Shown: in pieces, positions 21,154-53,434 of the stretch
Position numbering within the stretch: position 1 is the stretch's first letter
How the letters are laid out: each line of letters begins with the position of its first letter
From: an uncultured delta proteobacterium
GTDB lineage: Bacteria; Desulfobacterota; Binatia; Binatales; Binataceae
Direction: 5' to 3'
Length of the DNA: 64,000 nucleotides
Assembly: GCA_963808235.1 (NCBI GenBank)
Contig: CAWEEQ010000004.1
Coordinates: 781,084 to 845,083, forward strand
Notes under the pieces: model-generated
Database searches by the model: none
Seen by the model: only the letters and a program-made list of their open reading frames with translations
What the model was told of the DNA's origin: nothing
Translations under genes and position numbers: made by a program

Positions 21154-21224
21154 CCTTGCATTTGTATAACAGCGCGCGCTTTCGCGAAATCCCGGCAGAG
21201 GCCAGCCCCTGTCGCGCTTGCCGA

Positions 21225-32160: not shown

Positions 32161-32511
32161 GCTCGCAAAAGTCTCATCAGGTTTGTCCTCGCCGTTTCGG
32201 TGACCGGAGGTGGCCGGAGGTCTCTAAATCTATTTGACTGTCTAATGCGCATTATCATTCAAATTACTTGACGACGACTCATCTATTGCTTGATGACCAT
32301 CATCTGCTTTCTCAAACGTAGCAAGATTTCAAAGACTAATCAAGCCATGAAAATATTGTCAAGTTAAGATAAAGCTGTTAGAATTCTAAAGCGTGGCATC
32401 TTTATTTACTTTATTTTATGTCTCATTGCTTTGTTTATTCTTTTATGGTACAGTCTTACATAGCGTGCATCCCTTACGATTCATGCGTCGAATCGCGTAC
32501 TGACCTGAGCA
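32161..32511. promoter_or_regulatory. AT-rich (about 35% GC) intergenic island upstream of the EPS locus
   Basis: Strong compositional contrast with the 60-65% GC surroundings. 350 bp without a credible ORF. Confidence 0.5.
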
Positions 32512-33252
32512 GTGAGAAAAAAAACCATGAAACGAAAACTATTGGTCATAGCTCTTCTGTGTTGTGCGCAGCTTCTGTTCGGATGCTCCGCGAAGGACCC
32601 GGAGGCTACCGATATCAAGGGTGTGTCGATGGCGCCGGTGTCGCCTGCCTGCCAATTCACTTCGGTCGACGACCAGTTTCGATCATACCGGATTCAGCCG
32701 GGCGACCAGCTCGACATCAGTTTTTATATGAGCCCCGAGTTTGACCAGGACCTGACCGTACGACCCGACGGCGACATCTCGATGCCGGTGGTCGGCAATA
32801 TTCACGTGCAGGGACTAACCCCGGTCGGGCTCGAGAAGAATCTCAATCAGCTCTATTCGCAGGAGTTGAAAGATCCGAAGACCACGGTCCGCATCGACAA
32901 GAGTCCAAGCCAGGTCGTGTACGTCGAGGGCCAGGTTGGCAAACCCGGCGCGGTGCCGCTGCAGCCCGGGATGACCGCGATCCAGGCGATCGCCGCGTCG
33001 GGCGGAATGAACGATAACGCCGGACCGAGCCGGGTGATTCTCATAAGACGCGACGCGTGCGGGAACGCGCACGGGCAGCCTCTCAAGCTCGACAAAGTGC
33101 TGAACCAGAAAAATAACGAAGAAGATGTGGCGCTGCTGCCTTCGGACATCGTGGTCGTACCGCGCAGCGGGATTGCCCAATTCGATCTCGACGTGAAGCA
33201 GTACGTGCGCGACGCGATGCCGGTCGAAGTCTACGCCGCGCCGCCATTTTGA
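32512..33252 (+). CDS. polysaccharide export outer membrane protein (Wza/GumB family lipoprotein)
   Basis: Lipobox LLFGCS. Poly_export and SLBB-like segments (IQPGDQLDISF..., YVEGQVGKPG). Confidence 0.8.
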   Translation: MRKKTMKRKLLVIALLCCAQLLFGCSAKDPEATDIKGVSMAPVSPACQFTSVDDQFRSYRIQPGDQLDISFYMSPEFDQDLTVRPDGDISMPVVGNIHVQGLTPVGLEKNLNQLYSQELKDPKTTVRIDKSPSQVVYVEGQVGKPGAVPLQPGMTAIQAIAASGGMNDNAGPSRVILIRRDACGNAHGQPLKLDKVLNQKNNEEDVALLPSDIVVVPRSGIAQFDLDVKQYVRDAMPVEVYAAPPF

Positions 33253-33262
33253 GCCGAGTGGG

Positions 33263-34786
33263 ATGAATCAGATGAACAACGAAGCTGTAATGCAGTGGAT
33301 AGAGAAGATATTCCGGCGCCGGGCGTTGGCGCTCCGGATAGGCCTGCTGGTCTTCGGCGTAATCGCGCTGGGCTCGATCATGTGGCCCCCGAGCTACGCG
33401 TCGTCGTCGAAAATCCTGGTTCAATCCAACCGCGCGCAACTGCTGGTCTCGCCCGGGCTGAAGGAAGACGCCGCCAATCAATCGACCCAAACGGTTCCGG
33501 TGGCGGAGCAGGACCTCAACTCGGAGGTCGAGCTGCTGACCAGTCCGTTCCTTATTAAGCAGGCGCTCGCGGGGATGAAGCTCAATCAACGCAAGGGCGG
33601 CGTGATCGCGGGAATGCGAAACATTGTCGACGCGGTCGTCAGCGTCCCGACAGACGTGTACACGGTGCTGCACGGAGGCCCCAGCGCGACTGCGAACCAG
33701 GACGAGATTCAGAAAATCGTGAATCATCTCAGCGCGGACGTGATCAAGCGCTCGAATGTTATCGAGGTTTCGATTGTCTCGCACGATCCCGCGTGGGCGA
33801 AAGCGTTTCTCTCGCAATTGATGACTTCATACCTGAACCTGCACGGGCAGTTGTCGCAGAATCCGCAGGCGCAGGCATTTTTCCAGCAGCAGCGCGCGCT
33901 GCTCGATCAGCGCCTCCAGGACTCAGAGAAGGAGTTGCGCGCGGCGCAACTGCAGACCGGAATCGCTCAATTCAGCGAGCAGCAGCAGGCGCTCATCAAC
34001 CAGGTGTCCGCCGCCGAGGCGAACTATCGCACCACCAGCGCCTCTCTGGATTCCAAGCTGCAGCAGATCAGGAGCCAGGAAGCCGAGTTGAAGCAGACTC
34101 CGCAGCGTCAGACCAAGGAATCGAAGTCGGTCCAGAACATGGCGCTCAGCCAGTTGAAGCCGCAGATGCTTCAACTCGAAACCGAGCGTGCCGAGTTGTT
34201 GAGCCGCTATCAGCCCACCAGCGAGAGAATCCGTGCGATCGACGCCAAGCTGAAAGCCGGCCAAATCATCCTGAGCCGCGAAGATAAGACCAACGTCCAG
34301 GAAACCACCACCGATGTGAATCCGACCTGGCAGGCGCTCGATGCCGATTTGGCCAAAGCGCGGGCCGAAGCCGCGTCGGATAAGGCGGCGCAGACCACTG
34401 AAGCGGCGCAAGTCGCAACGTTACAGAATCAGCTCAAACAGATGACCACGGATGGAGTCGAGATCGAACGCCTGCAGCGCAAAGTCGATAGCGACAAGGA
34501 AGCGTACATGTCGTACGTGCGCAAGGGCGAGGAGGCCCGCGCGGCCGAGGCTCTTAACCAAAGCCGGATCCTGAACGTGAGCGTGGTGCAGGATCCGACC
34601 ACTCCGATCGATCCGGTGTCGCCGCGAATCCGGTTGAATCTGATCGCCGGGCTCCTGTTTGCCCTGATGCTGGCGGTCGCCGCGGCGCACTGGACCGAGG
34701 AATACGATCCCAAGATTTGTTCGACCGCGTCGATATTCAAGGACACCGGGCTCAGCACGGTCGCGATCCTCGACGACAGGTTGTAG
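33263..34786 (+). CDS. polysaccharide chain-length determinant protein (Wzz/GumC-like, no kinase domain)
   Basis: N-terminal TM plus Wzz-like region, long coiled-coil periplasmic segment, C-terminal TM. No P-loop. Confidence 0.7.
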   Translation: MNQMNNEAVMQWIEKIFRRRALALRIGLLVFGVIALGSIMWPPSYASSSKILVQSNRAQLLVSPGLKEDAANQSTQTVPVAEQDLNSEVELLTSPFLIKQALAGMKLNQRKGGVIAGMRNIVDAVVSVPTDVYTVLHGGPSATANQDEIQKIVNHLSADVIKRSNVIEVSIVSHDPAWAKAFLSQLMTSYLNLHGQLSQNPQAQAFFQQQRALLDQRLQDSEKELRAAQLQTGIAQFSEQQQALINQVSAAEANYRTTSASLDSKLQQIRSQEAELKQTPQRQTKESKSVQNMALSQLKPQMLQLETERAELLSRYQPTSERIRAIDAKLKAGQIILSREDKTNVQETTTDVNPTWQALDADLAKARAEAASDKAAQTTEAAQVATLQNQLKQMTTDGVEIERLQRKVDSDKEAYMSYVRKGEEARAAEALNQSRILNVSVVQDPTTPIDPVSPRIRLNLIAGLLFALMLAVAAAHWTEEYDPKICSTASIFKDTGLSTVAILDDRL

Positions 34787-34791
34787 CCGAT

Positions 34792-36375
34792 ATGTATTAC
34801 GAACACTTCAGACTTAGCGGCGCTCCCTTCGAGTTCAATCCCTCGGCGTCGGTGCTCTTCATGAGCGCGGGGCATCGCGAAGGATTGGCGGCGCTCGAGT
34901 GGGGACTGTCCGAGCCGAGCGGATTCACGATGCTGGTCGGCGAGATCGGGACCGGCAAGACCACGCTCATCTACTCGCTGCTCGCGACGCGGCATCAGGG
35001 CGTCCGGACCGCGTGGGTGGCGAATCCGCGCTTAAGCTTCGAAGACATGATGCGCCAGATTTTGGGCCAGCTGGGCGCAGTTGCGCCGGAGACGTCGGGC
35101 AAGCTCGCGCTGCTGCAGGCGTTCGACGCGCAGCTCGCGAGCCATGGGCTCGAAGAGTGCGTGGCGGTGATTGTCGACGAGGCGCAGGACCTGAGCGACG
35201 ACGCGCTGGAAGATCTGCGCCTGTTGACCAACTTTCAATCGCTCGAGCGCAGACGCCTGCAAATAGTGCTGGTCGGTCAGCTCGATCTCGCCAGAAGGCT
35301 GGGGCGGCCGCAACTGCGCCAACTGAATCAGCGAATCGGTGCGCGCGCGCTGTTGCCGACTCTGCAGGACCGGGAGATTTACGACTACGTCGAATACCGG
35401 CTGCGCTCGCGCGGCGGAGATATCGAGAACCTGTTCACGCGGAGCGCGATGCGGGAGCTCGCGCGCGCGAGCGGCGGAATCCCGCGGCGGATCAACATGC
35501 TTTGCCACAACGCGATGCTGCAGGCATACGCGGACGGCGAGCAATTCGTCGCCGAAAAGCATGTGCGTGCCGCCGCCAGCGACTACGATAATTTGCTGGT
35601 CGGCAAAGATTCGGCGTCCGCGAAGATGGCCGCATCGGCGAGCGCGGCGATGCAATCCGCGAGCACAAAGATACGGTCGGCGAGCGCGTCGATGCATTCA
35701 TCGGCGGTCTCGATGGCGCCGGCGATGCGTTCGGGCGCGACCAAGGCGGTTCGCGCGTTGAGCGCGGCGGCAACATTCGGGGCGCTGAGCTTGCTCGGCG
35801 TAGCGGTAGTCGGATTTTGCGAGATGCAGCCGGTGCACAATGATCTTTCCGCGCTGGTCAGGAAATTCGAATCGAAAGCGGCGAGTTTCAGAAGGCCAAT
35901 CGTGGTGCAGCGGGCGCCGGCGCAGTTCGTGACCGGTTCGTCCCCGGCGACCGTTCCGGCGCCGAACACAATTGGTTCGGCTCCAGCGGCCGTTCATGAC
36001 AGCACCGCCCCGGGCGCCCACGAATTGAGTACGCGCGGACACCTCAGGGGTCTTTCGGCGACTGGCCGGCGGGTTCCAGTCAAGCCGCAACCTGAAGCGA
36101 GCGCCGTTCCCAATATTTTGCCGGTGACGTTGTCGCCGGTCGGAAATATTTCCGCATCTCCGGATTCTTCGACGAAACCAGATGACGGCGCCTTGCGCAC
36201 CGACTCGACCATTTTGGTCAGGGCGGGCGACTCGCTCAGCAAGATAGCGATGAGAATCTATGGTTCGTTCGGAGCCGATGAAGTTAAGCGATTGACCGCG
36301 GCGAATCCGCAAATCAAGGACGCGAACGTGATCTATCCCGGTCAGTCTATTCACGTGCAGCAAGCTACCAAATGA
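34792..36375 (+). CDS. ExeA/GspA-like AAA ATPase with C-terminal LysM domain (EPS-locus secretion ATPase)
   Basis: Walker A VGEIGTGKTT, Walker B VIVDEAQ. C-terminal LysM (ILVRAGDSLSKIAMRIYG...YPGQSIHV). Confidence 0.75.
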   Translation: MYYEHFRLSGAPFEFNPSASVLFMSAGHREGLAALEWGLSEPSGFTMLVGEIGTGKTTLIYSLLATRHQGVRTAWVANPRLSFEDMMRQILGQLGAVAPETSGKLALLQAFDAQLASHGLEECVAVIVDEAQDLSDDALEDLRLLTNFQSLERRRLQIVLVGQLDLARRLGRPQLRQLNQRIGARALLPTLQDREIYDYVEYRLRSRGGDIENLFTRSAMRELARASGGIPRRINMLCHNAMLQAYADGEQFVAEKHVRAAASDYDNLLVGKDSASAKMAASASAAMQSASTKIRSASASMHSSAVSMAPAMRSGATKAVRALSAAATFGALSLLGVAVVGFCEMQPVHNDLSALVRKFESKAASFRRPIVVQRAPAQFVTGSSPATVPAPNTIGSAPAAVHDSTAPGAHELSTRGHLRGLSATGRRVPVKPQPEASAVPNILPVTLSPVGNISASPDSSTKPDDGALRTDSTILVRAGDSLSKIAMRIYGSFGADEVKRLTAANPQIKDANVIYPGQSIHVQQATK

Positions 36376-36393
36376 CGAACTTAGGTGTGACCC

Positions 36394-37254
36394 ATGAGTA
36401 GATACTTTCAGGCAATGGAACGCCGCAAGAACGGAATGGTTCCGTTAACTGATTCCAGGATAGGTGATGCGAGAATCGCTGATTCCAACTTCGCTGATTC
36501 GAAGGTCGTTGAGTCGAAGATCATCGATTCCAAGATCATCGAGACCAAGACCAAGCCGTTCTCACACTCACAGGCTGTAGCGCGAACTCAGCCGATGGCG
36601 CTTCCGTCTGTTTCGGAGCCGCAAGGGTTGCTCGATACGCTCGCATGCTGCCATTCGATGCGCAGCTTGAGCGAGCAGCTGGCGGCGGCGAGCGCGCACA
36701 ATGGCCCTGCGCGAATACTCATGACCGGATGCCGGCCGGGCGACGGCGTATCCACCGTGGCTGCGGCGATGGCGCTCGACATAAGTCAGCGCCTGGCGGC
36801 GCGGACAGTGCTGGTAGAAGGACAGCCGCGAGTCACGATGATGCATCCGTTCTTCGCGCGCTCTTGCGCGCCAACTCCCGCGACGATCACGAGCGCGTCG
36901 ATCGCCGTGCAAGGAACCGGATATCCGCGGCTCGAGACGGCGCGGCCGGAGCAGTTGGCGCTAGCGGACCAACCGGCACGGCTGGTGGAAGATCTGGACG
37001 AATTACTTATGCGCTATCGCCTGGCGGTTATAGATCTCGGCGTAGTGCGTTTGGACCCACGAATGTTAGCGCTGGCGCGGCCCACCGATCCGATCCTGAT
37101 TGTGGCCCGACATCTGCATACAGATCGAGCGGAAATGATCGCGACGGCAAACATCCTGCGCTCTACCGGACATCCCGTAGCTGGGGTGATTCTGAATGGA
37201 TACAAGTCGCCGTTGCCATCGCTGGTTCGCCGCCTTGTTGGAATGGAGGAATAA
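36394..37254 (+). CDS. BY-kinase/ParA-like P-loop protein with degenerate Walker A (likely pseudokinase), N-terminal pentapeptide repeats
   Basis: LMTGCRPGDGVSTVA aligns to the BY-kinase Walker A PGEGK(S/T)T but has Val in place of the Lys. No C-terminal Tyr cluster. Seven 5-aa tandem repeats (DSRIG DARIA DSNFA DSKVV ESKII DSKII ETKTK). Confidence 0.6.
   Translation: MSRYFQAMERRKNGMVPLTDSRIGDARIADSNFADSKVVESKIIDSKIIETKTKPFSHSQAVARTQPMALPSVSEPQGLLDTLACCHSMRSLSEQLAAASAHNGPARILMTGCRPGDGVSTVAAAMALDISQRLAARTVLVEGQPRVTMMHPFFARSCAPTPATITSASIAVQGTGYPRLETARPEQLALADQPARLVEDLDELLMRYRLAVIDLGVVRLDPRMLALARPTDPILIVARHLHTDRAEMIATANILRSTGHPVAGVILNGYKSPLPSLVRRLVGMEE
36451..36555 (+). repeat. 7 x 15-nt tandem coding repeat (pentapeptide [DE][SAT][KRN]-h-h)
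   Basis: Read directly: gattccaggataggt / gatgcgagaatcgct / gattccaacttcgct / gattcgaaggtcgtt / gagtcgaagatcatc / gattccaagatcatc / gagaccaagaccaag. Confidence 0.85.
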
Positions 37255-37257
37255 GCA

Positions 37258-38379
37258 ATGGAAGATCTTATCTCGCACAATGGTACTCTAGCCGGTTCAC
37301 ACAACGGCATTCACGCGCCATCAAGTGTGCCTACCTACTCAACTCGGCGCCAAATGCGCGGGATTGCGATTGTTGGGCTCGGCTACTGGGGGCCCAACTG
37401 GGTGAGAAATTTTTCCCAGATACAGGGAATCGACCATGTCGTGTGCTGTGACTTCAGCCGCCCGCGGCTCGATCACATCAAGGGACGTTACCCATCGGTA
37501 GTCATTACCGACCAGCTAGACCGGGTGCTCACCGATCCCGCGATCGACGCGGTCGTAGTTGCTACGCCGGTTAACACTCACTTTGAGATAGCAAGTCGAT
37601 GCCTGAAGGCAGGTAAGTCGACGCTGGTCGAGAAGCCACTGGCTACCTCATGCGACCAGGCAGAGCTTCTAATAAAGATGGCGCGCGAGCGCGATCTGAC
37701 GCTTATGGCGGGCCACACCTTCGAGTACAGCGCGCCGGTGGTGAAGATTCGCGAGCTGATCGACAGCGGCGAGCTCGGCGATATTTTCTACATCAGCTCG
37801 GTGCGCGCGAATCTCGGGCTCTTTCGCCGCGACGTCAACGTGGCCTGGGATCTGGCTACGCACGACATCTCGATCATCCTGATGCTGCTGGGCGAGATGC
37901 CGCTTGAGGTGACTTGCCAGGGCGAGAGCCACTATCACGATCACGTCGAAGACGTTGCGCTGCTCACGCTTCGCTTTGCCAACAACGTGATCGCTTTCGT
38001 GCACGTTAGCTGGCTCGATCCGAACAAGATTCGGCGCACAACTATAGTAGGTTCGCGCAAGATGCTGGTGTACGACGACACGGCGTTGCAGGAAAAAGTC
38101 CGCGTCTACGATAAGGGCGTCACCAAGCATCCTTACTACGACACTTATGGAGACTTTCAGCTTTCATATCGTTACGGCGACGTGAATATCCCGCGGATCG
38201 ACGACCCGGAGCCGCTCAAGGTGGAATGCGATCACTTTATTGAATGCATCAAGAGCGGGATTGCACCGAACAGCGACGGACTGAGCGGACTTAGAGTAGT
38301 GAAGGTGCTGGAAGCAGCCGACCGTTCGCTCAAGAGTCACGGAAGGCCGATAGCGCTTACTCCAACCAGGGTGAACTAG
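37258..38379 (+). CDS. Gfo/Idh/MocA family oxidoreductase (WbpB-like UDP-sugar 3-dehydrogenase candidate)
   Basis: GGAGG RBS. Rossmann motif IAIVGLGYWGPNW. EKP-containing catalytic region. Confidence 0.7.
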   Translation: MEDLISHNGTLAGSHNGIHAPSSVPTYSTRRQMRGIAIVGLGYWGPNWVRNFSQIQGIDHVVCCDFSRPRLDHIKGRYPSVVITDQLDRVLTDPAIDAVVVATPVNTHFEIASRCLKAGKSTLVEKPLATSCDQAELLIKMARERDLTLMAGHTFEYSAPVVKIRELIDSGELGDIFYISSVRANLGLFRRDVNVAWDLATHDISIILMLLGEMPLEVTCQGESHYHDHVEDVALLTLRFANNVIAFVHVSWLDPNKIRRTTIVGSRKMLVYDDTALQEKVRVYDKGVTKHPYYDTYGDFQLSYRYGDVNIPRIDDPEPLKVECDHFIECIKSGIAPNSDGLSGLRVVKVLEAADRSLKSHGRPIALTPTRVN

Positions 38380-38411
38380 CACACACCACTTAGATGTAGC
38401 ACTGAAAGAAT

Positions 38412-38924
38412 GTGAGAACTGAGATGTCACCGCACGAACTACCACCCAACGTATGCGCCTCGGCCGACGTGATCCTGGGCGAGGAGGTCCAATTAGCACC
38501 TTTCGTAAATCTATACGGATGCAGCGTCGGAGACGCGTCGCGAATCGGCGCCTTCGTGGAAGTTCAGCGCGACGCGCACATCGGCAAGCGCTGCAAGATA
38601 TCGAGTCACACTTTCATTTGTTCCGGCGTCACTATTGAAGATGAGGTTTTCATCGGTCACGGGGTGCTGTTCATCAACGATCGGCATCCACGCGCGACCA
38701 ACCCCGACGGCACCTCCAAGACCCCGGACGATTGGGTGATGGAGCGCACTTACGTGCGGCGCGGCGCCTCGATTGGGAGCGGTGCGATCATCATGTGCGG
38801 CGTCGAGATTGGCGCGAGATCGATGGTCGCAGCCGGTGCGCTAGTGACCAGTGACGTTCCCGCGCGAGCAACTGTCCTAGGTATACCGGCACGTCTATAT
38901 ACCGGCCAGCGCCGGTCCGCATAG
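38412..38924 (+). CDS. hexapeptide-repeat acyltransferase (WbpD/WlbB-like sugar N-acetyltransferase candidate)
   Basis: Left-handed beta-helix hexapeptide repeats throughout (GAFVEVQRDAHIGKRCKISSHTFICSGVTIEDEVFIGHGV). Confidence 0.7.
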   Translation: MRTEMSPHELPPNVCASADVILGEEVQLAPFVNLYGCSVGDASRIGAFVEVQRDAHIGKRCKISSHTFICSGVTIEDEVFIGHGVLFINDRHPRATNPDGTSKTPDDWVMERTYVRRGASIGSGAIIMCGVEIGARSMVAAGALVTSDVPARATVLGIPARLYTGQRRSA

Positions 38925-38941
38925 ATCAGGAGTCGAACGAG

Positions 38942-40078
38942 ATGCCAATCAAATTTTTGGACCTCGCGGCACAGAACCGCGAAATCATGCCACAAGTCGA
39001 GCGCGGCTTCGCGGAAATCCACGAGAAGACTTCGTACGTTGGAGGCCCACAGGTGGCGGCGTTCGAAGAGGAATTTGCGAACTTCCTGGGCGCCCGCCAG
39101 GTGATCAGCGTGGCGAGCGGGACCGACGCGCTAAGACTCGCGCTGCTCGCGATCGGAATCGGGCCGGGCGACGAAGTGATCACGACTCCGATGACGTTCA
39201 TCGCGACTGCCGAAGCGATCGTGCAGACCGGCGCGCGGCCCTCGTTTGTGGATATCGATCCGAACACCGGAAATATGAGTGTTCCGGAAATCTCGCGCTA
39301 CCTCGAGCGGGGACGCTTCACAGCGCCCAACGGCCCGCGCGCGATCGTCCCGGTTCATCTCTACGGAATGCCGGCGCCGATGATCGAAATGCGCGATCTC
39401 GCGCAGGCGTGCAACCTTAAACTGATCGAGGACGCATGCCAGGCGCATGGCGCGCGCATCACTCACGACGGCCAATCGCAATATGCCGGCACGATCGGCG
39501 CGGCCGGTTGCTTCAGTTTTTATCCCGGTAAGAATCTGGGCGCGTGGGGCGAAGGCGGGGCCGTGGCGACCAATGACGAGGAGCTGGCGGCGCAGATCCG
39601 TACGTTACGCGACCACGGACGCCTTTCGCACTACGCGCACAGTGCATATGGATACAATGCGCGGCTCGACACGATGCAGGCGGCGGTACTCCGTCCGAAG
39701 CTCGAGCGCCTGGCGGAGTGGAATGCACGACGCCGGCACTTCGCGGCGCTTTATCGTGAAACTCTGCCTCACGAGGTGGAGCTGCTGTCCGAGCCCGAGG
39801 GTATCGAGTCGTGCTACCACCTGTTCGTCATCCGCAGCGAGCGGCGAGACGCGATCAGAACCGCGCTGCTGCAAAACCAGATCGAGTGCGGGATCCATTA
39901 CCCGGTTCCGCTTCATCTACAGCCGGCATGCCGCGACCTCGGATATGCGCAAGGAGATTTTCCGCACGCCGAGACGATGGCTGACACCGTGCTGTCATTG
40001 CCGATGCATCCCTTTCTGACCGAGCGCGAAGTTAAGACGGTCAGCCAGGCAGTCAAGCGCGCATTAACCACAGGTTGA
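38942..40078 (+). CDS. DegT/DnrJ/EryC1/StrS family PLP-dependent sugar aminotransferase (WbpE-like)
   Basis: SGTDAL, PGDEVI, CFSFYPGKNLGAWGEGG (PLP lysine region). Confidence 0.8.
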   Translation: MPIKFLDLAAQNREIMPQVERGFAEIHEKTSYVGGPQVAAFEEEFANFLGARQVISVASGTDALRLALLAIGIGPGDEVITTPMTFIATAEAIVQTGARPSFVDIDPNTGNMSVPEISRYLERGRFTAPNGPRAIVPVHLYGMPAPMIEMRDLAQACNLKLIEDACQAHGARITHDGQSQYAGTIGAAGCFSFYPGKNLGAWGEGGAVATNDEELAAQIRTLRDHGRLSHYAHSAYGYNARLDTMQAAVLRPKLERLAEWNARRRHFAALYRETLPHEVELLSEPEGIESCYHLFVIRSERRDAIRTALLQNQIECGIHYPVPLHLQPACRDLGYAQGDFPHAETMADTVLSLPMHPFLTEREVKTVSQAVKRALTTG

Positions 40079-40085
40079 TAATGTT

Positions 40086-43114: not shown

Positions 43115-43115
43115 C

Positions 43116-44291: not shown

Positions 44292-44304
44292 GAGGAGTTA
44301 TCAA

Positions 44305-45120: not shown

Positions 45121-45139
45121 CGGCAGCCAAGAAGTGAAA

Positions 45140-46570: not shown

Positions 46571-46584
46571 CGGATGTGGGCGAC

Positions 46585-47385
46585 ATGAGGCAGAGGACTA
46601 ATAATCTTCCGATACTGATGTATCACGCGATCTGGTCGGGCGCGGACGGTGCGATCCCCAGGACGTCGAGCATCGAGCACGCTGTAAAGGATCGTGACTT
46701 CCGCGCGCAACTCGATGCGATCGTCAGTGGCGCGTTTCACACCATCAAGCTCGCCGACCTCGAGCATCCGGTTGATGCGCCGAAGCCGCTGTTGATCACC
46801 TTCGATGACGGCCATGAAAGCGACTTCACCATCGCCGCGCCCGAGCTCGCGCGGCGAAATCTGCACGCAATCTTTTTTGTCGTATGGTCCTACCTCGGAC
46901 AGCCCGGCTATCTGAGTCGAGAACAAGTGCTCGCGTTGCGTGAGCAAGGATTCGAAATCGGTTCGCATGGACTGACCCACGTCCCGCTCAGCAAGATAAG
47001 TCCGGCGCAAGCGTCGAACGAAATCCTCGAATCGAAGCACAGACTGGAAGACTTGCTCCAGCAGCCAATCGCAGGGCTTGCGCTTCCGTTCGGCCATTAC
47101 AACGATGCGGTGCTGAAAGCCGCGTGGGCCGCCGGCTATCGCCGGGTGATGACCTCGGACTTCAGGATTGCCAATCGGGAGCATCGGATCATGCCGCGGA
47201 TGGGACCGATGGCTGAGCATACGCTGGAGGATTTCAAGTGGATGCTCGAAGCGAGTCGTGCAGCCGCGATTCGTCATCGCACGATTGAGGCGATTGGTGA
47301 GCGGTTGAAACGCTTTATCAGCTATGGAGAGGCGCTGCTGATGCGCGCCCAGAATGGGGAGGTTCTAGCCAAGCCCGAGAAATAG
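46585..47385 (+). CDS. polysaccharide deacetylase family protein (NodB homology domain)
   Basis: TFDDGH, GSHGLTH motifs. 266 aa from ATG 46585. Confidence 0.8.
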   Translation: MRQRTNNLPILMYHAIWSGADGAIPRTSSIEHAVKDRDFRAQLDAIVSGAFHTIKLADLEHPVDAPKPLLITFDDGHESDFTIAAPELARRNLHAIFFVVWSYLGQPGYLSREQVLALREQGFEIGSHGLTHVPLSKISPAQASNEILESKHRLEDLLQQPIAGLALPFGHYNDAVLKAAWAAGYRRVMTSDFRIANREHRIMPRMGPMAEHTLEDFKWMLEASRAAAIRHRTIEAIGERLKRFISYGEALLMRAQNGEVLAKPEK

Positions 47386-47410
47386 TCGGCGCTGACTGAA
47401 AACAAATAAA

Positions 47411-48277
47411 ATGCGTGAACACGAAATGGCCGAATTCTTTCGAGCGCTGGGGCACAAGATCGTCCAGACCCGGAGCTGTTTCTGGTACAGCTCGCAGCGC
47501 TTCCTCTACAAGAACCTGCCGATTCATCGCAACGTCGACCCCTCGCAGTCCGAACTCGCCAAGGTGATGTTCCGCGGGACCGCATTGGCAATTCGTTATC
47601 CGGAAACCGCCGGCGAATCGACCCCGGACGGCGGGATTTACGTTTGCGCGGACCGGAATTACGACTTCGCGTCGCTTACCGCCAATGCTCGCAGCCATAC
47701 CCGGCGTGGACTTGCGCGCAACATCGTCGAACAGGTCGATTTCAATGATCTCGCGAACAAGGCTTACCCGCTAATCCAGGAAACCAACCTGCGCCAGACC
47801 GGAAAACAGCCGATGCGCAGCGAGTCGCATTGGAGATCGTTTTGCGAACTCTCACGCCGAACGCCCGGGCTGGAGGCTTGGGCCGCGTTCGTTGACGGTG
47901 AGCTGGCCGCGTTTATCGTCGCGATGATGGCCGAGGATTGTTACTACCTTCACCTGCAAAAGAGCGCGTCGGCCCTGCTCAAGCACTATTCCAACAACGC
48001 CTTGCTGTTCACCGTGATGAAAGCGGCGCTCGCACGTCCCGAAGTCGGCTGGGTTTCCAACGGACAGATCGCGCTGGCCGCGAAAGAGGGTCTTTACCAT
48101 TTCAAGACCAGCATGGGCTTCGACATCCATCCGTTTAAAGAGCGGCTGGTTTTCAATCCGCTGATCAAGCCTGGTCTGTGGGCGGGCAGGGCGCTGACCA
48201 GCCGGCTCACGAAGGTCAATCCGGAAAATCTTTTCTGGCGGAGAGCTTCACGGGCATTCGACCTGGCGGGGGATTGA
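47411..48277 (+). CDS. FemAB-like / GNAT-fold acyltransferase associated with EPS loci
   Basis: 288 aa. Pattern matches the FemAB-related family seen in PEP-CTERM EPS loci (from memory). Acyl-CoA N-acyltransferase fold in the C-terminal half. Confidence 0.55.
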   Translation: MREHEMAEFFRALGHKIVQTRSCFWYSSQRFLYKNLPIHRNVDPSQSELAKVMFRGTALAIRYPETAGESTPDGGIYVCADRNYDFASLTANARSHTRRGLARNIVEQVDFNDLANKAYPLIQETNLRQTGKQPMRSESHWRSFCELSRRTPGLEAWAAFVDGELAAFIVAMMAEDCYYLHLQKSASALLKHYSNNALLFTVMKAALARPEVGWVSNGQIALAAKEGLYHFKTSMGFDIHPFKERLVFNPLIKPGLWAGRALTSRLTKVNPENLFWRRASRAFDLAGD

Positions 48278-48439
48278 GGGCCAGTGAAGACGCATCAAAT
48301 GTCACTGGAAGGTTTGCTCGGAGTCGACGAGACGCAACACGGCCCCTGCAGGAATAGGGCGTTCGGATCAGGCACCGGTATCGTCGGTTGTGAAGGGCCC
48401 TGTATCGGAAATTATCTGAGTCCGGAGGGAACTGGCAGA

Positions 48440-48715
48440 TCAGGCTTCGACTTCCGCGGGCAGGTCTCGAAGGCATTTGCCGCAAAGCGCGTAGCACTCT
48501 TCCGGATCATCGCTCATGGCAAGAATTGCTACCACCCACGAATTGAGATCCGCGCACCGATGACAAACGAGCAAGCCACCTTCGGATCGAATCTTGAACC
48601 AGCACTCGGCGATTGTCACCGGATCTTCGATCAATTCGACGCGTACGCAACTGTCTTCAGGTTCCAAGGACGGTTCCATGACTTCTGGTGCTACGAATTT
48701 GGTGCGGCTGTTCAT
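48440..48715 (-). CDS. small Cys4 zinc-ribbon protein, hypothetical (strand assignment uncertain)
   Basis: CHRC..x20..CGKC motif. GAGGGG RBS before the ATG at 48715. An overlapping plus-strand ORF (48284-48721) cannot be excluded. Confidence 0.3.
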   Translation of the reverse strand: MNSRTKFVAPEVMEPSLEPEDSCVRVELIEDPVTIAECWFKIRSEGGLLVCHRCADLNSWVVAILAMSDDPEECYALCGKCLRDLPAEVEA

Positions 48716-48872
48716 AGTTAAACCCCTCAGCAAGGTCGCATCGAGCCCTAATCGAGCAACCATCATGCCAGTCAACCGCTTCCTTTCGCCCCGATTAAGG
48801 ACGGCAATTTGATAAGGATTGTGGGCATTGGGAAGGAAATGCCCGGTCGGCGCCAATTCGGGAGGTTTGTCG

Positions 48873-49745
48873 ATGCTGTTGGAGTCTAAAGAGGTGAAAA
48901 ATTTACGGGATTACCGGATTGAGCCTGATACGGCAATTCCGTTAAGGGTTGTTCGTCCAAGTAGAGTCAGGGAACTAACGATGTTCGAGGGAATATCGAG
49001 AGCGCCGTCTGATCATGGACCAGACGATGAACATGGGAATAGACTCCGCGGCCACCTGAAACGACGGGCCATCGATGAGATCGAACGGCTTTTCGGTTGG
49101 CTGAACAAACGCCAGCGAATCGAACCATCGGCACAACTGGTCAAGGTGAACCTGGGCAGCGGACTCTTCGTGGCTCCGGGATGGATCAACCTGGATGCCA
49201 GCGTAAAAACCGTGTTCGCGAGGCTCCCGCGTTTCGCGCTGCGCTGGACCTATCCGCTGGCGAACGTCCGGAACACGCACTCGCGCGATGAATTCGTCGC
49301 CTTGCTGCGGGATAATCGGTTTATTTTCCACAATTTGAAATATGGAATCCCGCTTCGAGATTCTTCGGTTGATTTCATTTATGCCTCCCACATGTTGCAT
49401 CACCTCTATCGTGACGACGCTTTGAAACTTCTTCGGGAGGCAATCCGGGTGCTCAAGCCAGGCGGCACCATGAGAATTGCGGTGCCAGATCTCGAACTTA
49501 TCGTCCGGCTATATCTGGAAGGGAGACGCGAGCAGGCACTGGGATATTTTTTCTATTTGCGGAGTCCAAGGAGCAACTTGAGCAGGCGCTACTATCAGTA
49601 CGATTTCACGCTCTTGAAGGTTCTTATGGAAGAAGCCGGAGCGCGGAACGTCCGACGTTGCAAGTTTCGGGAGGGCAGGGTCCCTGACCTCGAGCAGCTC
49701 GACCGGTTGTCCGAGGAGACCCTGTTCGTGGAAGGGGAACGTTAA
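48873..49745 (+). CDS. class I SAM-dependent methyltransferase (Methyltransf_11-like)
   Basis: GGAGG RBS. Motif I VNLGSG. Motif post-I/II (FIYASHMLHHL, LKPGGTMRIAVPD). Confidence 0.75.
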   Translation: MLLESKEVKNLRDYRIEPDTAIPLRVVRPSRVRELTMFEGISRAPSDHGPDDEHGNRLRGHLKRRAIDEIERLFGWLNKRQRIEPSAQLVKVNLGSGLFVAPGWINLDASVKTVFARLPRFALRWTYPLANVRNTHSRDEFVALLRDNRFIFHNLKYGIPLRDSSVDFIYASHMLHHLYRDDALKLLREAIRVLKPGGTMRIAVPDLELIVRLYLEGRREQALGYFFYLRSPRSNLSRRYYQYDFTLLKVLMEEAGARNVRRCKFREGRVPDLEQLDRLSEETLFVEGER

Positions 49746-49884
49746 TCTCCCGATCTAAAAAAACTATACATATAAGGATTATATGCTTCAAATATCATCA
49801 AATAGTACTAAGAATCATGGACAGTAATGAAGTCACCATGGTATAATAAGGTACAGCAAGGGGTTTTCGACCCCTGAAGCTATC
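49746..49884. promoter_or_regulatory. AT-rich promoter island upstream of Crp-family regulator
   Basis: About 30% GC over 140 bp containing TATAAT-like hexamers (ggtataataagg). Confidence 0.45.
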
Positions 49885-50718
49885 ATGAAGCGGCTCAGAC
49901 GCCCAAGAAAGCGAATTTTGGATGCTTCCGCCAGTCCGCCGGTGGAAAAGCCCTTGGAAATTCAGGCCCTTTTGAAGCTCTTTCCGACCCTCGAATCCGA
50001 AAAACTCAAACGGCTGGCCGGCGAGATGTCGTTGGTGCGATTCAAACGAGGCGATCGCATTCGCGTCGACACCCAGTCATCGACGGACGTACTGGTGGTT
50101 TTGAAGGGAGCGATCGCGATCACCTGGCAGCACGACAGCCGCCATCAGGTGCTGGTCACGATGCTCGCGCCGGGAGAAATGTACGCGGTTTCCACGCTGC
50201 TACCCGAGATGGCGCAAGGCCTGAAAGGCTGCGCATTCACCAGCAGCCTGGTAGCGACGATCGATTCGAAGAGGCTGGTGGAGATAGTTCTCGGCGTCGG
50301 GCTGGGAGCGTTCAAATCAGCGATGGAAATGACGGTTGGATGGTCGGCCGAAACGCTCATGCGATACATCAAGATGTTTCACATGGCGCCGCGCGATCGT
50401 CTAGTCATTGCGCTGATCGAGATGGGCGCAAAGTTCGGCGTGCGTGACTCGAGAGGCCTCATTCTGAATTTGCCGATGACTCAGAAGGACCTGGCCAACC
50501 TGCTGGGCGCATCGCGGCAAAAGGTCAACGCATACCTGGGCGAACTGGTGCGCATGGGAGCGGTGATCAATCTGAGCCGGCAGATCGTTCTGGTTCCGGA
50601 CAAGCTATTCGCGTTGGTCGGCGATCCCGATGTCCATTACTACAGCGCGCCGCACAAGCATTCGGTTGCCAAACCGCACGACCTCTCGTCGCATTCAAGA
50701 CGCGAGATGCATCTCTAA
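49885..50718 (+). CDS. Crp/Fnr family transcriptional regulator
   Basis: N-terminal cNMP-binding-like beta-roll. C-terminal HTH (QKDLANLLGASRQKVNAYLGELVRMGAV). Confidence 0.75.
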   Translation: MKRLRRPRKRILDASASPPVEKPLEIQALLKLFPTLESEKLKRLAGEMSLVRFKRGDRIRVDTQSSTDVLVVLKGAIAITWQHDSRHQVLVTMLAPGEMYAVSTLLPEMAQGLKGCAFTSSLVATIDSKRLVEIVLGVGLGAFKSAMEMTVGWSAETLMRYIKMFHMAPRDRLVIALIEMGAKFGVRDSRGLILNLPMTQKDLANLLGASRQKVNAYLGELVRMGAVINLSRQIVLVPDKLFALVGDPDVHYYSAPHKHSVAKPHDLSSHSRREMHL

Positions 50719-50778
50719 AAAGTTTGTTGCCGCGATCCGCGTGGAAATACTGCAACCGCGGGATCGCTTGACAGAACC

Positions 50779-51465
50779 TTGGCGCGCAATGTACTTTGCA
50801 TTGCAAAGCTATTTGCCGAATGGGCTCCTGGAATCGCCGACTATATGAAAGACCTGAACGAAGCGCTCACCGAGATCTCGGCGATTCGCGCGCAGATCGT
50901 ACGTACCGCGGAGTTTCGCGGCTATGGACCCGTGACTGTCGCGATGACCAGTCTCGTCGCGATCGCGGCTGCCGTGGTCCAGGCCCGATTCTTCACCGTC
51001 GCGGCGCATGACGTACGGATCTACCTGGCCGTATGGATCTCGACCGCCGCGATCGCGACCGGCCTTATTGGGTTCGAAATGGTGACTCGGTCGCGAACGA
51101 TCCATTCGGGTCTCGCCCAGGAGATGATCTTTCACGCCGTTGAGCAGCTCGTTCCATCGCTAATGGCCGGGGTCCTGATAATGGCCGTGCTAATCAGGGT
51201 CGCTCCTGAAGCCGTCTGGATGCTTCCCGGCCTGTGGCAGATCATCTTCAGCCTTGGCGTATTCGCCTCAGCGCGATTTCTGCCGCGAGCGGTGTTCGCG
51301 GTCGCGGCCTGGTATCTTGTCGCCGGCCTTGTTTGCCTCTCATGGGCTGCGGCCGAGCGCACGCTGTCGCCGTGGATGATGGGAATTCCATTCGGCGTCG
51401 GCCAGTTGCTGGCCGCGTCGATTCTGCAATGGAGTGAAACAGGTATCGATGGCTCAACCGAGTAA
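50779..51465 (+). CDS. integral membrane protein, hypothetical
   Basis: 5-6 TM helices. No recognizable domain. Start could also be M at 50845. Confidence 0.45.
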   Translation: MARNVLCIAKLFAEWAPGIADYMKDLNEALTEISAIRAQIVRTAEFRGYGPVTVAMTSLVAIAAAVVQARFFTVAAHDVRIYLAVWISTAAIATGLIGFEMVTRSRTIHSGLAQEMIFHAVEQLVPSLMAGVLIMAVLIRVAPEAVWMLPGLWQIIFSLGVFASARFLPRAVFAVAAWYLVAGLVCLSWAAAERTLSPWMMGIPFGVGQLLAASILQWSETGIDGSTE

Positions 51466-51835
51466 AGACAAGCCGCGCGCGGGCCGCTTTTCATACGAAG
51501 GTCTCGACCGCGTGATCCACGAGCGGGCCCGGCTCAGCATTCTGACGTCTCTAATCGCCAACAAGCACGGTCTTTTGTTTGCCGATTTGAAGCGGCTCTG
51601 CGCGCTCAGCGACGGTAACCTGAGCCGCCATCTTCAGGTTCTTCAGGAGGCGAAATTGATCGCGGTATCCAAGGGCTTTGAAAAGAATCGGCCGCAGACG
51701 GCATGCCGGATCACCGCGCTGGGACGCGCACGCTACCTCGAATACCTCGAAGTTCTCGAGCAAGTGGTGCGCGATGCGGCGGCGGGGTTGAACGAACAGC
51801 CGCGTGGCGTAGCGGAGCGCCTAGCGCCGACCTGA
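51434..51835 (+). CDS. winged-helix transcriptional regulator (ArsR/MarR-like)
   Basis: wHTH segment [43 protein letters not shown]. Confidence 0.55.
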
Positions 51836-51860
51836 GATTTTTTTAATTGGTTACTCTACG

Positions 51861-52622
51861 ATGCCAAGTACTCTACAATGCAATGCTAACCTTCACGTCG
51901 CAATTATCATGGATGGCAACGGACGCTGGGCCACCAGCCGCCGTCTGCCGCGCTCCGCTGGCCATCGCGCAGGCATCCAGGCGGTGCGCGCAGCGGTCGA
52001 GGCGGCGTTCGACTTCGGTATCAAAACGCTCACCCTGTTCGCCTTTTCCTCCGACAACTGGCTGCGACCTCGGGACGAGGTCAAGTCGCTGATGTGGATG
52101 CTTCGCGGCTACCTCCGCAGCGACACGCGCCGCTTCATCGAGAGTGGCTCGCGCGTGGTCGTGATCGGCCGCCGCGACCGCTTGCCGGCGTCCATCCGCG
52201 CGGAGATCCGTCGAATCGAACGCGCGACTGCGCACGGCCGACGCCTTACGGTGCGAGTCGCAATCGACTACTCCTCGCGGGATTCCATACTGCGGGCCGC
52301 ATCGAGGCTGCCCGCGGGGCGACTCTGGTCGCGCGAGGATTTCGCGCGCTTCCTGGTCGAGCCGCCTGCAATCGCCGATACCCGTCCGCCGCTCGATAGC
52401 GAGGTTGACCTGCTTATCCGAACCGGTGGCGAGCAGCGGCTTTCCGATTTCATGCTGTGGGAATCGGCGTACGCGGAACTGCTTTTCAGCGATCTGATGT
52501 GGCCCGAGTTCGGAGCCAACGAGCTCAAGTCGGCGGTTGAAGAGTTTCATCGCCGCGAGCGGCGCTTCGGAACCCTCATAATTTCCAAACCCAACGCGGC
52601 CTTCGCGCCAGGAGAATCATGA
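51861..52622 (+). CDS. uppS: isoprenyl transferase (undecaprenyl diphosphate synthase)
   Basis: [38 protein letters not shown] signatures. Confidence 0.85.
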
Positions 52623-53434
52623 ATCGATCAACGCAGGATTGGGTGGATCACTTTCGCTGGAACGGTTCGGTTGCGATGCGCATCCCATGGCATATCGGTC
52701 CCGATTTGAGCGATGAGGAACGGGCTGCGATCTCTCATTCAATCCAGATGTTCCAGCTCGGAGAGAACTCGGAGGGTCGGCATCTGATGCGCTACGCGAA
52801 AGAGTGGGCCGCCCGCACCGGCGACATCGCCTACCCGGAGGCGATCAGGATGCTGATCGTCGAAGAACAGCGCCACGCCGGTGTGCTGGGCCGCTTCATG
52901 GAGGTCAATGGAATTGCGCGCGTCAAAGGCGGCTGCACCGACGGAGTTTTCCGACGGGTGCGAAATATGTTCGGCACGCTGGAGATCTCGATCAGTGTCC
53001 TGGTGACGGCCGAGATCATCGCGAAGATTTACTATCCGGCATTGAGCGAGGCGACCGCGTCGATCGTCCTGCGCGAAATTTGCAAGCAGATTTATCGTGA
53101 GGAAATTGCGCACGTGGAGTTCCAAACCGAGCAACTGGCGCGCATCCGGGCCGGGCGGAATGCGTCGGGCATGTGGGCGACCCGCTTTTTTCACCGCGCG
53201 CTCTTCTATCCGACCGTCATCGTAGTCGGCGCGTCTCATCAGATGACGTTGCGCCGCGGCGGTTTATCGCTGCGGCAGTTCTTCTCGCGATGCCACCGGC
53301 AATTCGTGCGCGACCTTGCCGCGATGGAACCGGACCGGAACTCGCGCCGGAGCGAAGGGCGCGCTATCGAGACCCGAGGAAAAGTGCCTATCGAGGATCT
53401 TCCGTCAACTGCGATTCACAACATTCAGTCATAA
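52619..53434 (+). CDS. ferritin-like diiron domain protein, hypothetical
   Basis: Two ExxH motifs (EEQRH, EEIAHVE) spaced as in ferritin-like/DUF455-type four-helix bundles. ATGA overlap with uppS. Confidence 0.5.

Follow-up and report, generated by a model that had tools for sequence, protein, structure and literature searches.

The question raised by the locus described here is whether a polysaccharide gene cluster that carries the families typical of exosortase-linked loci belongs to an exosortase system at all. The locus lies in a stretch of 64,000 nucleotides (contig CAWEEQ010000004.1 of assembly GCA_963808235.1, positions 781,084–845,083 of the forward strand; called the window below, with positions counted from its first letter) from an uncultured delta proteobacterium of the family Binataceae, which is part of the phylum Candidatus Binatota. 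An original prediction, made by a model from the letters alone, described positions 32512–53434 as a large co-directional exopolysaccharide locus of the PEP-CTERM/exosortase-associated type in which neither an exosortase nor a PEP-CTERM protein was in view, and left two options: an exosortase-independent derivative, or sorting genes lying outside the window. Our analysis leads us to read it, with a probability of about 0.7, as a chromosomal Wzx/Wzy-dependent exopolysaccharide or capsule locus of Candidatus Binataceae that works without exosortase/PEP-CTERM sorting. The Binatia (phylum Binatota) are abundant uncultured bacteria of soil and peat, and we know of nothing that is established about their surface polymers.

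A large co-directional exopolysaccharide locus does occupy the plus strand. Listing of open reading frames (ORFs) and scans with hidden Markov models (HMMs) found every gene family that had been named, from Wza to the methyltransferase, with the Crp regulator and uppS, where the prediction had placed it. With gene starts refined against orthologues and ribosome-binding sites, the block from the Wza-like to the FemAB-like gene contains 14 genes spaced by -1 to 32 nt. The overlaps of 1–4 nt put forward as the sign of an operon occur at two junctions only (1 nt between the priming transferase and Wzx genes, 4 nt between the UppS gene and the next one), and the remaining junctions from the Wza-like to the FemAB-like gene are gaps of 1–32 nt; the packing is operon-like despite the scarcity of overlaps. 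The extent had to be corrected: the conserved cluster begins at two HTH_17 genes (31664–32160), at about position 31664, and passes the window end, its 3′ part being made of secreted beta-helix proteins, two genes of the metallo-beta-lactamase (MBL) fold and a family 2 glycosyltransferase (GT2) gene that leaves the window. Two elements had gone unnamed, a 3-amino-sugar cassette (37258–40078) and a UDPG_MGDP_dh-like gene (44305–45120).

Search for an exosortase system

An XrtA system is recognised by an exosortase gene (EpsH/XrtA; PF09721, TIGR02602, TIGR03109) within or beside the polysaccharide locus, and by several secreted proteins with a C-terminal PEP motif, transmembrane helix and basic cluster (TIGR02595). 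No exosortase was matched in the scanned ORFs of the 64-kb window, in agreement with the prediction. A hydropathy census of the stop-to-stop ORFs of the window with at least four transmembrane segments returned major facilitator superfamily (MFS), Na/H exchanger, ABC-2, resistance–nodulation–division (RND), priming transferase, Wzx and Wzy_C proteins, the exceptions being one antisense artefact and a 228-aa protein without exosortase match. This protein, which has five transmembrane segments, was considered as a cryptic exosortase and rejected: it has no Pfam match at E<=1 and no NCBIfam match at E<=10, and it sits in a genome-specific insertion. Nor was an exosortase found within 10 kb of the ATPase gene on either side in the loci of five lineages, or in the 10 kb downstream of the locus in 10 Binataceae relatives, the side on which the prediction had envisaged one; the polytopic ORFs past the locus in these relatives are PAP2, VIT1, MotA/ExbB, P-type ATPase, MFS and ABC permease proteins. 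Of the two options left by the prediction, exosortase independence is the better one.

A C-terminal scan by regular expression (not by HMM) found no PEP-CTERM tail in any ORF of the window and of 14 Binatia loci (325 kb), and the C-termini of three secreted proteins, read directly, carry a beta-helix-type ...YYGTSRxGAAYSVGAA motif and no PEP-CTERM, so that the second absence noted in the prediction also holds. PrsK/PrsR/PrsT and sigma-54 promoters are hallmarks of XrtA systems (PMC9850573). PrsK, PrsR and PrsT have no match in the window, which also lacks HisKA and Sigma54_activat proteins, and no sigma-54 −24/−12 site is present upstream of the locus. Two apparent exceptions were rejected. 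The single match to a sigma-54 promoter, with 1 mismatch and at chance level, lies on the minus strand inside the spacer 48278–48980; and a sigma-54 regulator and a histidine kinase that are encoded next to the homologue of the ATPase in a distant locus (L024; related loci carry L numbers here) score higher as AtoC/AtoS than as PrsR/PrsK, with 422 against a cutoff of 503 for PrsR. A literature search returned no papers linking Binatia with exosortase.

Three export proteins do have their best NCBIfam match among models of the XrtA system. The OPX (outer-membrane polysaccharide export) protein scores 121.6 bits on TIGR03027 (cutoff 180; runner-up EpsY, 74), the polysaccharide co-polymerase (PCP) 100.6 on TIGR03007 (cutoff 278.9; runner-up a generic family, 70) and the ATPase 208.3 on TIGR03015 (cutoff 324.5), that is 36–67% of the curated cutoffs. 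The top rank of TIGR03015 says little, because no other ATPase-domain model was reported for this protein; its homologues from five lineages all score 204–245 bits, under 324.5, and are a coherent clade outside the XrtA equivalog. XrtA preference is absent in five of the eight markers. The kinase homologue scores 16.8 on TIGR03018 (cutoff 230.7) and higher on generic kinase models, the deacetylase 24.5 on TIGR03006 (cutoff 276) and 50.8 on the generic PdaB, and the Wzy_C protein 24.7 on TIGR03097 (cutoff 188); the FemAB-like protein has no TIGR03019 match even at E<=10, and the priming transferase passes the generic TIGR03025 (342.4, cutoff 295.6) and fails the XrtA-type TIGR03013 (168.4, cutoff 393). 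The comparison with generic paralogues, proposed as a check along with the prediction, thus favours the XrtA models for the OPX and PCP proteins (the ATPase having no rival model) and gives them no preference for the other five. The assignment to a PEP-CTERM/exosortase-associated type does not hold, since all XrtA equivalog scores are below cutoff, five of eight markers show no preference and no exosortase was found in or around the locus. The locus is only weakly linked to the PEP-CTERM/exosortase (XrtA) system.

The same best matches could be explained by a conventional PEP-CTERM/XrtA locus whose exosortase, PrsK/PrsR/PrsT and PEP-CTERM substrates are encoded elsewhere in the genome, all the more as the pair of deacetylase and FemAB-like protein and the Wzy_C protein are also typical of XrtA loci and as the exosortase scan covers the window and the relatives' loci rather than a whole genome. 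We consider this explanation improbable. Besides the low scores, the five indifferent markers and the uniformly sub-cutoff ATPase family, neither the five ATPase-centred loci nor the downstream regions of the 10 relatives contain an exosortase, the 325 kb have no PEP-CTERM tail, the sigma-54 promoter is missing and the L024 two-component pair fits AtoC/AtoS, below the PrsR cutoff; and in described XrtA systems the exosortase gene usually lies within the polysaccharide cluster (PMC1569441, PMC2907700).

The export genes

If the polymer of Candidatus Binataceae is exported without exosortase sorting, the nature of the conduit becomes the next question. The first gene of the operon (32512–33252, plus strand) encodes a Wza-like OPX lipoprotein of 246 aa (241 aa if it starts at the ATG at 32527), with a lipobox, LLFGC, readable in the sequence. 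Its only domains are Poly_export, SLBB and SLBB_2; it has neither Wza_C nor an outer-membrane helix. An OPX protein with only Poly_export and SLBB domains, a lipobox and no Wza_C has the defining features of Class 3, in which the median length is 256 aa (PMC9603273), and the window protein is a Class-3, PslD-like short lipoprotein exporter. PslD is also its closest solved relative, with a full-length alignment at E=6e-18. The second gene (33263–34786, plus strand) encodes a Wzz-like PCP-2 co-polymerase with a GNVR domain and without a kinase domain. This protein of 507 aa has predicted transmembrane helices at residues 20–38 and 454–472, a periplasmic part of about 415 aa and a cytoplasmic tail of about 35 aa, and its closest solved relative is PslE (E=3e-14, residues 28–480).

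The kinase homologue is a separate protein of 286 aa (36394–37254, plus strand) with matches in the PDB to the bacterial tyrosine (BY) kinases CapB, VpsO and Wzc. Aligned to these, it has GDGVST in place of GAGKST, with the Walker A lysine replaced by valine; its Walker A reads GCRPGDGVST, Walker A′ and B are altered, and there is no C-terminal tyrosine cluster, the last 30 residues containing a single tyrosine. An exhaustive search for this family yielded 345 representative clusters, and all full-length representatives at E<1e-10 have GC(R)xGDG[A/V/T/C/S]S[T/S], lack the lysine and a C-terminal tyrosine cluster, and show an altered Walker B context. The lysine-less signature GC(R)PGDG[AVT]S[ST] does not vary over dozens of clusters defined at 50% identity. 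Because this loop is conserved across the family, the gene encodes a conserved pseudokinase and is not a decayed kinase gene; the strong conservation of the "dead" P-loop hints that it still binds something. The family consists of stand-alone proteins of about 250 aa, and more distant stand-alone and PCP-fused proteins with lysine-less loops of the GEGVST type were also seen.

Stand-alone BY pseudokinases paired with a kinase-less PCP-2 are established for EcpK/EpsV and HfsB/HfsA, in which they are proposed to be scaffolds (PMC12004946). PslD lacks a C-terminal helix, and PslE lacks a kinase active site, a Y-cluster, detectable kinase activity and a cognate phosphatase (PMC13434223). At the sequence level the PCP and pseudokinase of the window have the features of this phosphorylation-independent type (EpsV/EcpK, HfsA/HfsB, PslE), and the family scans of the locus gave no phosphatase match. 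The pair fits the EcpK/EpsV–HfsB/HfsA subfamily, and the 35-aa tail of the PCP could dock on the pseudokinase.

Class-3 OPX proteins of Myxococcus need a beta-barrel porin of 18 strands (PMC9603273, PMC12819527), and no candidate for such a PgaA-like porin was found in the window or in the conserved part of the related loci. About 29% of myxobacterial Class-3 OPX genes also have no adjacent porin gene (PMC9603273), and PslD/PslE have been modelled as a conduit without porin (PMC13434223). A 304-aa gene beside the OPX gene in L026 and L024 was considered for this role and rejected, as its product looks by eye like a helix-rich lipoprotein without features of a barrel, and the window encodes no homologue of it.

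The ATPase with LysM

Between the PCP and pseudokinase genes lies a gene (34792–36375, plus strand) for an ExeA/GspA-like ATPase of 527 aa with AAA_22, AAA_16 and C-terminal LysM domains. The AAA+ domain (residues 1–270, with AAA_22 at residues 68–195 of the 552-aa ORF) is cytoplasmic, and its Walker A, GEIGTGKTT, and Walker B, VIVDEAQ, are intact. A single predicted transmembrane helix (322–340) and a low-complexity periplasmic linker rich in Pro, Ala and Ser lead to the LysM domain (476–522), which matches SafA and Kbp in the PDB. This is the layout of ExeA/GspA, an AAA+ ATPase followed by one transmembrane helix and a periplasmic peptidoglycan-binding domain; ExeA carries an ExeA-type peptidoglycan-binding domain, and the window protein has LysM instead. 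Assembly of the type II secretin requires ExeA, which binds peptidoglycan, jointly with ExeB (PMC4098917). In the window, no gene for a secretin, for GspB or for any further type II secretion component was found. In XrtA loci the TIGR03015 family has been named but not characterised. By analogy with ExeA, the ATPase probably serves in peptidoglycan anchoring or in the assembly of the conduit.

Sugar synthesis and repeat-unit assembly

Three adjacent genes, adjacent also in all related loci, form the sugar cassette. They encode a WbpB-like Gfo/Idh/MocA NAD-dependent sugar 3-dehydrogenase (37258–38379, plus strand), whose best NCBIfam match is the UDP-GlcNAc 3-dehydrogenase model NF040723 (186 bits, under the cutoff of 450); a left-handed beta-helix (hexapeptide) N-acetyltransferase of WlbB/WbpD/QdtC type (38412–38924, plus strand), with a match to the NeuD/PglB/VioB family and PDB matches to WlbB (3mqg, E=1e-18), QdtC and a WxcM-like protein; and a DegT-family, pyridoxal phosphate-dependent sugar aminotransferase (38942–40078, plus strand) that matches QdtB (E=7e-79) and WbpE (E=2e-73) in the PDB. 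A 3-dehydrogenase, a 3-aminotransferase and an N-acetyltransferase are the standard route to a 2,3-diacetamido-2,3-dideoxy hexose, which we infer to be the product here from families that are adjacent and conserved, all of them scoring under the equivalog cutoffs. The short UDPG_MGDP_dh-like protein encoded further downstream (44305–45120, plus strand; PF00984, 35.6 bits) has 271 aa, of which only the central and dimerisation part is recognisable, with weak PDB matches to UDP-ManNAcA and UDP-Glc dehydrogenases; it is neither long enough nor similar enough to be labelled WbpA.

The set for Wzx/Wzy-dependent assembly is complete in the one locus, with priming transferase, Wzx, Wzy_C protein, PCP and OPX protein. 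The Bac_transf priming transferase (40086–41600, plus strand), a large polyprenyl-phosphate glycosyl-1-phosphate transferase, is of WbaP/WcaJ type; the Wzx flippase of the multidrug/oligosaccharidyl-lipid/polysaccharide (MOP) family (41600–43114, plus strand; E=1e-46) has 504 aa, its start being set by the 504-aa gene of the relatives and a ribosome-binding site. A family 4 glycosyltransferase (GT4; 43116–44291, plus strand) matches several GT4 models below their cutoffs, and its orthologue in L003 carries Glyco_transf_4 and Glycos_transf_1. The priming transferase, GT4 and GT2 together point to a repeat unit made of about three sugars. The Wzy_C protein (45134–46570, plus strand; PF04932, 71.6 bits) has 10 predicted transmembrane helices and is the only candidate for the Wzy polymerase. 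Tailoring genes follow: a polysaccharide deacetylase of carbohydrate esterase family 4 (CE4; 46576–47385, plus strand; PF01522, 78.9 bits), an Acetyltransf_6 protein, FemAB/BioF2-like and of the GCN5-related N-acetyltransferase (GNAT) type (47411–48277, plus strand; PF13480, a marginal 23.7 bits against a cutoff of 22), with orthologues in the relatives that are 80–82% identical, and, beyond a spacer, a class I S-adenosylmethionine-dependent methyltransferase (48981–49745, plus strand, alternative start 48873; Methyltransf_11, 41.6 bits), which L004 and L006 have and L008, L009, L011 and L013 lack. The pair of deacetylase and Acetyltransf_6 genes recurs in distant loci, and a plausible function for it is to remove N-acetyl groups and then re-acylate the freed amine.

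Could these genes make a lipopolysaccharide O-antigen instead, the Wzy_C protein being a ligase of the WaaL type? O-antigen ligases are among the members of the Wzy_C domain family, and 2,3-diacetamido sugars are classic O-antigen components, made by the Wbp/Wlb pathways. O-antigen pathways, however, use neither an OPX exporter nor a PCP-2 with a kinase-like partner, both of which are present and conserved here, and without another Wzy candidate the Wzy_C protein is needed as polymerase. An O-antigen locus is therefore very unlikely.

Conservation of the locus

A genome scan with the 467-aa MBL-fold protein as query returned 11 loci (79–83% identity), mostly labelled Candidatus Binataceae, Candidatus Binatus or "uncultured delta proteobacterium" (Microflora Danica bins), plus a palsa bin. 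At least 10 Candidatus Binataceae assemblies share the gene order, and soil lineages at a greater distance have the cluster in rearranged form. Window proteins mapped onto the relatives at 64–88% identity give a common order of short dehydrogenase-like, Wzy_C, deacetylase, FemAB-like, in some the methyltransferase, and Crp genes, followed by the beta-helix gene and the two MBL-fold genes, the first on the minus and the second on the plus strand. L003 and L009 are overlapping pieces of one 1.97-Mb contig; jointly they cover about 40 kb, with the whole locus including both HTH_17 genes and about 7 kb of flank on each side, and the gene order of the window is kept over these 40 kb. In the relatives the second MBL-fold gene is followed by genes for GT2, a 214-aa GNAT-like protein and a 415-aa protein with a weak ceramidase-N match, beyond which the neighbours vary in every genome. 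Distant homologues of the ATPase (41–62% identity) sit in loci with the same core order (L023, L026/27, L028), namely OPX, PCP, ATPase-LysM, a kinase homologue of about 257 aa, dehydrogenase, acetyltransferase, aminotransferase, priming transferase and Wzx; the gene-cluster family is therefore widespread in soil metagenomes. In the Microflora Danica catalogue, the majority of exopolysaccharide clusters are reported to be uncharacterised (bioRxiv 10.64898/2025.12.21.693542), which is consistent with a widespread family.

This conservation bears on the idea that the locus of the window is a decaying or silent remnant. Its kinase homologue has lost the kinase motifs, its UDPG_MGDP_dh-like gene encodes only 271 aa, and it contains a 700-nt spacer without counterpart and a four-gene insertion. 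Each of the first two features is shared, as the lysine-less signature of the pseudokinase is invariant in its family and a length of about 270 aa is common to the dehydrogenase-like proteins of the relatives. Moreover, the ORFs of the window are intact and 65–87% identical to their orthologues, frameshifts being seen only in some other assemblies (L005, L010). We regard a remnant as highly improbable.

In L005 and L010 the Wzy_C, deacetylase, FemAB-like and MBL-fold genes are each broken into 2–4 ORFs, which could be frameshifts of long-read assembly or real decay; the window copy is intact. The distant locus L024/L025 (3937–13366) is interrupted by transposases of the IS1595 and IS110 insertion sequence families, and its PCP is in pieces of 142 and 135 aa. 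L007 encodes, at 20742–21386, an RND permease 92% identical to that of the window (26594–29755), but about 9 kb downstream of the locus and not upstream, and this indicates a rearrangement around the cluster.

Regulation, insertion and downstream genes

The 5′ border of the cluster is formed by genes for a small HTH_17 (excisionase/MerR-like) protein of 72 aa (31664–31882, plus strand; PF12728, 51.7 bits) and a second HTH_17 protein of 93 aa (31879–32160, minus strand; PF12728, 43.3 bits), divergent from the export operon. L003 and L028 have an HTH_17 gene at the matching position, and the homologue of the 93-aa protein in L003 is 67% identical. In the AT-rich leader of 350 nt upstream of the Wza-like gene, which is partly conserved with L003, a sigma-70-like promoter (TTGTCA-17-TAGAAT with TG; 32356–32384, plus strand) is a candidate only, 1 site being found and 0.9 expected by chance. 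A riboswitch or RNA leader upstream of the operon was also considered and set aside, the only Rfam matches in the window being two tRNAs. The Crp/Fnr-family regulator (49885–50718, plus strand; HTH_Crp_2, 42.5 bits) has orthologues at the same position in eight relatives (64–73% identity) and is thus truly embedded in the locus, as predicted; it and the HTH_17 proteins are likely local regulators.

The packed block of 14 genes ends at a low-GC spacer of about 700 nt (48278–48980) that contains no convincing gene and gave no blastn or tblastx match in any fetched related locus; GC content is 0.535 in the 48–50 kb region. An ORF of 145 aa (48284–48721) was rejected as a gene, having no family match, no counterpart in the relatives and a composition that looks non-coding by eye. 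In contrast with the Crp gene, uppS, which the prediction also describes as embedded, is not a conserved part of the locus. It belongs to a block of four plus-strand genes (50779–53434) with no counterpart in relatives, a genome-specific insertion because in the relatives the beta-helix gene directly follows the Crp gene. The block encodes the 228-aa protein with five transmembrane segments, of no recognised family, an HTH_34 regulator, UppS (51861–52622, plus strand; TIGR00055 passed) and a 271-aa protein with faint di-iron/ferritin-like matches (AurF/rubrerythrin/EncB-like). The HTH_34 gene overlaps the five-transmembrane gene by 17–32 nt, and the 271-aa gene overlaps uppS by 4 nt. UppS may be a second, locus-linked undecaprenyl-diphosphate synthase.

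Three genes for secreted proteins come next. The first (53811–55274, plus strand; DUF1565 and Beta_helix) encodes a secreted or membrane-anchored right-handed beta-helix protein of 487 aa with an N-terminal hydrophobic segment (23–41) and orthologues in all relatives, a candidate polysaccharide-cleaving or -modifying enzyme. The second (55773–57860, plus strand) encodes a secreted Big_7 protein of 695 aa with Pro/Thr linkers, and the third (58083–60323, plus strand) a secreted protein with Big_7, a Pro/Thr linker and a beta-helix, whose C-terminal half is a paralogue of the 487-aa protein (66% identity over 447 aa). The C-terminal 295 aa of the 695-aa protein (56973–57860) are rich in Cys, Trp and Asp and have no Pfam match at E<=1. 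A segmental duplication joins the two Big_7 genes, 295 nt (56632–56926 and 58627–58921) being 95.6% identical, and the beta-helix parts 54024–54620 and 59046–59642 are 78% identical at the DNA level; the relatives mostly have a single fused Big_7 and beta-helix gene.

The two MBL-fold proteins, both with Lactamase_B_3, have 440 aa (60373–61695, minus strand; orthologues 78–88% identical in relatives) and 467 aa (62110–63513, plus strand; 79–83% identical in Binataceae assemblies). These divergently transcribed paralogues are 42% identical, each has a C-terminal region of about 300 aa without assigned family, and both are present in all Binataceae loci; the only other relatives found are proteins 24–29% identical in haloarchaea (Halobacterium, Halorubrum) and a Saccharimonadales bin. 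The GT2 gene (63541–64000, plus strand) is cut by the window end; its product has 287 aa in the Logan contig.

The first 31 kb of the window are unrelated housekeeping genes (PPK2, MFS, cyclase, Na/H exchanger, ABC transporter, IlvD, TetR, Usp, RND efflux). Among them is a protein of 1145 aa (7406–10843, minus strand) with double zinc ribbons, adenylate/guanylate cyclase, AAA_16 and TPR repeats; a protein of similar size is encoded downstream of the locus in L009 (17565–21143, minus strand). The tRNA genes lie at 432–505 and 23201–23274. Over 22–34 kb, the stretch that reaches from the second tRNA to where the locus starts, GC content drops from about 0.61 to about 0.56.

Discussion

Among known systems, the locus is best filed in the Wzx/Wzy-dependent, phosphorylation-independent class that includes PslD/PslE and EpsV/EcpK. 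The Psl system of Pseudomonas aeruginosa (cryo-EM structures 9v6l and 9v75; PMC13434223) likewise has a short lipoprotein OPX without C-terminal outer-membrane helix (256 aa, 246 aa here), a kinase-like part without active site or Tyr cluster, no Wzb phosphatase and Wzx/Wzy-dependent assembly. It differs in that its kinase-like domain is fused to the PCP, whereas that of the window is a separate 286-aa protein, and in that it has no ATPase-LysM, which the window has between PCP and pseudokinase. Psl is a polymer of mannose, rhamnose and glucose, whereas the window has a diacetamido-sugar cassette, and the GH39 enzyme PslG of Psl has beta-helix proteins in its place; by analogy these may have a polymer-trimming role like that of PslG. 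[quoted passage not shown] The window, in contrast, has no gene for an 18-strand porin anywhere and has the additional ATPase-LysM, and while EcpK has lost all motifs, the window pseudokinase keeps a conserved degenerate P-loop (GCRPGDGAS).

With XrtA loci (Haft 2006, PMC1569441; the floc clusters of Zoogloea and Aquincola, PMC9850573) the window shares the grouping of a short OPX, a chain-length protein, an ExeA-like ATPase and a kinase-like protein, the presence of deacetylase, FemAB-like and Wzy_C proteins, and the three best NCBIfam matches. It differs from them by the absence of exosortase, PEP-CTERM proteins, PrsK/PrsR/PrsT and sigma-54 promoter, by equivalog scores below cutoff, by a kinase homologue that appears catalytically dead, and by its Crp and HTH_17 regulators. 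ExeA/GspA of Aeromonas type II secretion (PMC4098917) has the same ATPase layout and likewise a gene beside an outer-membrane export component, but the window has no ExeB/GspB partner or secretin, and its gene is inside a polysaccharide export operon. The cassette has the same three adjacent enzyme families as WbpB/WbpE/WbpD (WlbA/C/B), but no full-length 6-dehydrogenase of the WbpA type and no WbpI epimerase accompany it, and its dehydrogenase is nearer to the archaeal UDP-GlcNAc 3-dehydrogenase model (186 bits, under cutoff). For these reasons the product may be a neutral sugar and not a uronic acid.

The pathway that we propose can be outlined as follows. The three-enzyme cassette would make UDP-2,3-diacetamido-2,3-dideoxy-hexose, which the short dehydrogenase-like protein could possibly oxidise to a uronic acid. 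The WbaP-type transferase would prime the repeat unit on undecaprenyl phosphate, GT4 and GT2 would extend it, and the CE4 deacetylase, the FemAB-like GNAT and the methyltransferase would tailor it, presumably in this order. Wzx would then flip the unit and the Wzy_C protein polymerise it. The polymer would leave through a PslD/PslE-like conduit, in which the helix-less lipoprotein OPX is docked on the PCP-2, with the catalytically dead BY-kinase homologue as the cytoplasmic scaffold of the PCP and no phosphorylation cycle. The ATPase-LysM would tie this conduit to peptidoglycan or help its assembly through the peptidoglycan, and the secreted beta-helix proteins would probably trim or modify the polymer.

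Several points weigh against a Wzx/Wzy-dependent locus that works without exosortase. The OPX, PCP and ATPase proteins do match models of the XrtA system best, which makes a remote evolutionary link with loci of the exosortase type real. The search for exosortase spans the window and the loci of relatives, which leaves room for an exosortase and PEP-CTERM genes elsewhere in the genome. The missing porin is a gap in the export model, and the sugar chemistry is a family-level inference, as the enzyme assignments are all under equivalog cutoffs.

The four-gene module of helix-less OPX, kinase-less PCP-2, ATPase-LysM and pseudokinase could also be a distinct export machine, widespread in soil and sister to the XrtA-type module, in which an active AAA+ ATPase anchored to peptidoglycan replaces the tyrosine autophosphorylation of Wzc systems in energy-dependent assembly or gating, without exosortase or adjacent porin. 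We advance this broader idea as an unlikely one. The ATPase-LysM protein is the locus's one feature of real interest, and to our knowledge the only component without a tested role in any polysaccharide pathway.

The locus is a real but fairly ordinary surface-polysaccharide cluster, with a resemblance to XrtA loci confined to three export genes. For annotation, it cautions against reading an exosortase system into a best match to a PEP-CTERM/XrtA subfamily model when the score is sub-cutoff. Co-polymerase partners with a dead kinase and exporters without outer-membrane helix, both recently established ideas, gain an environmental example here. For the Binatia, a locus conserved throughout the family provides a concrete candidate for the main secreted or capsular polysaccharide of these bacteria.

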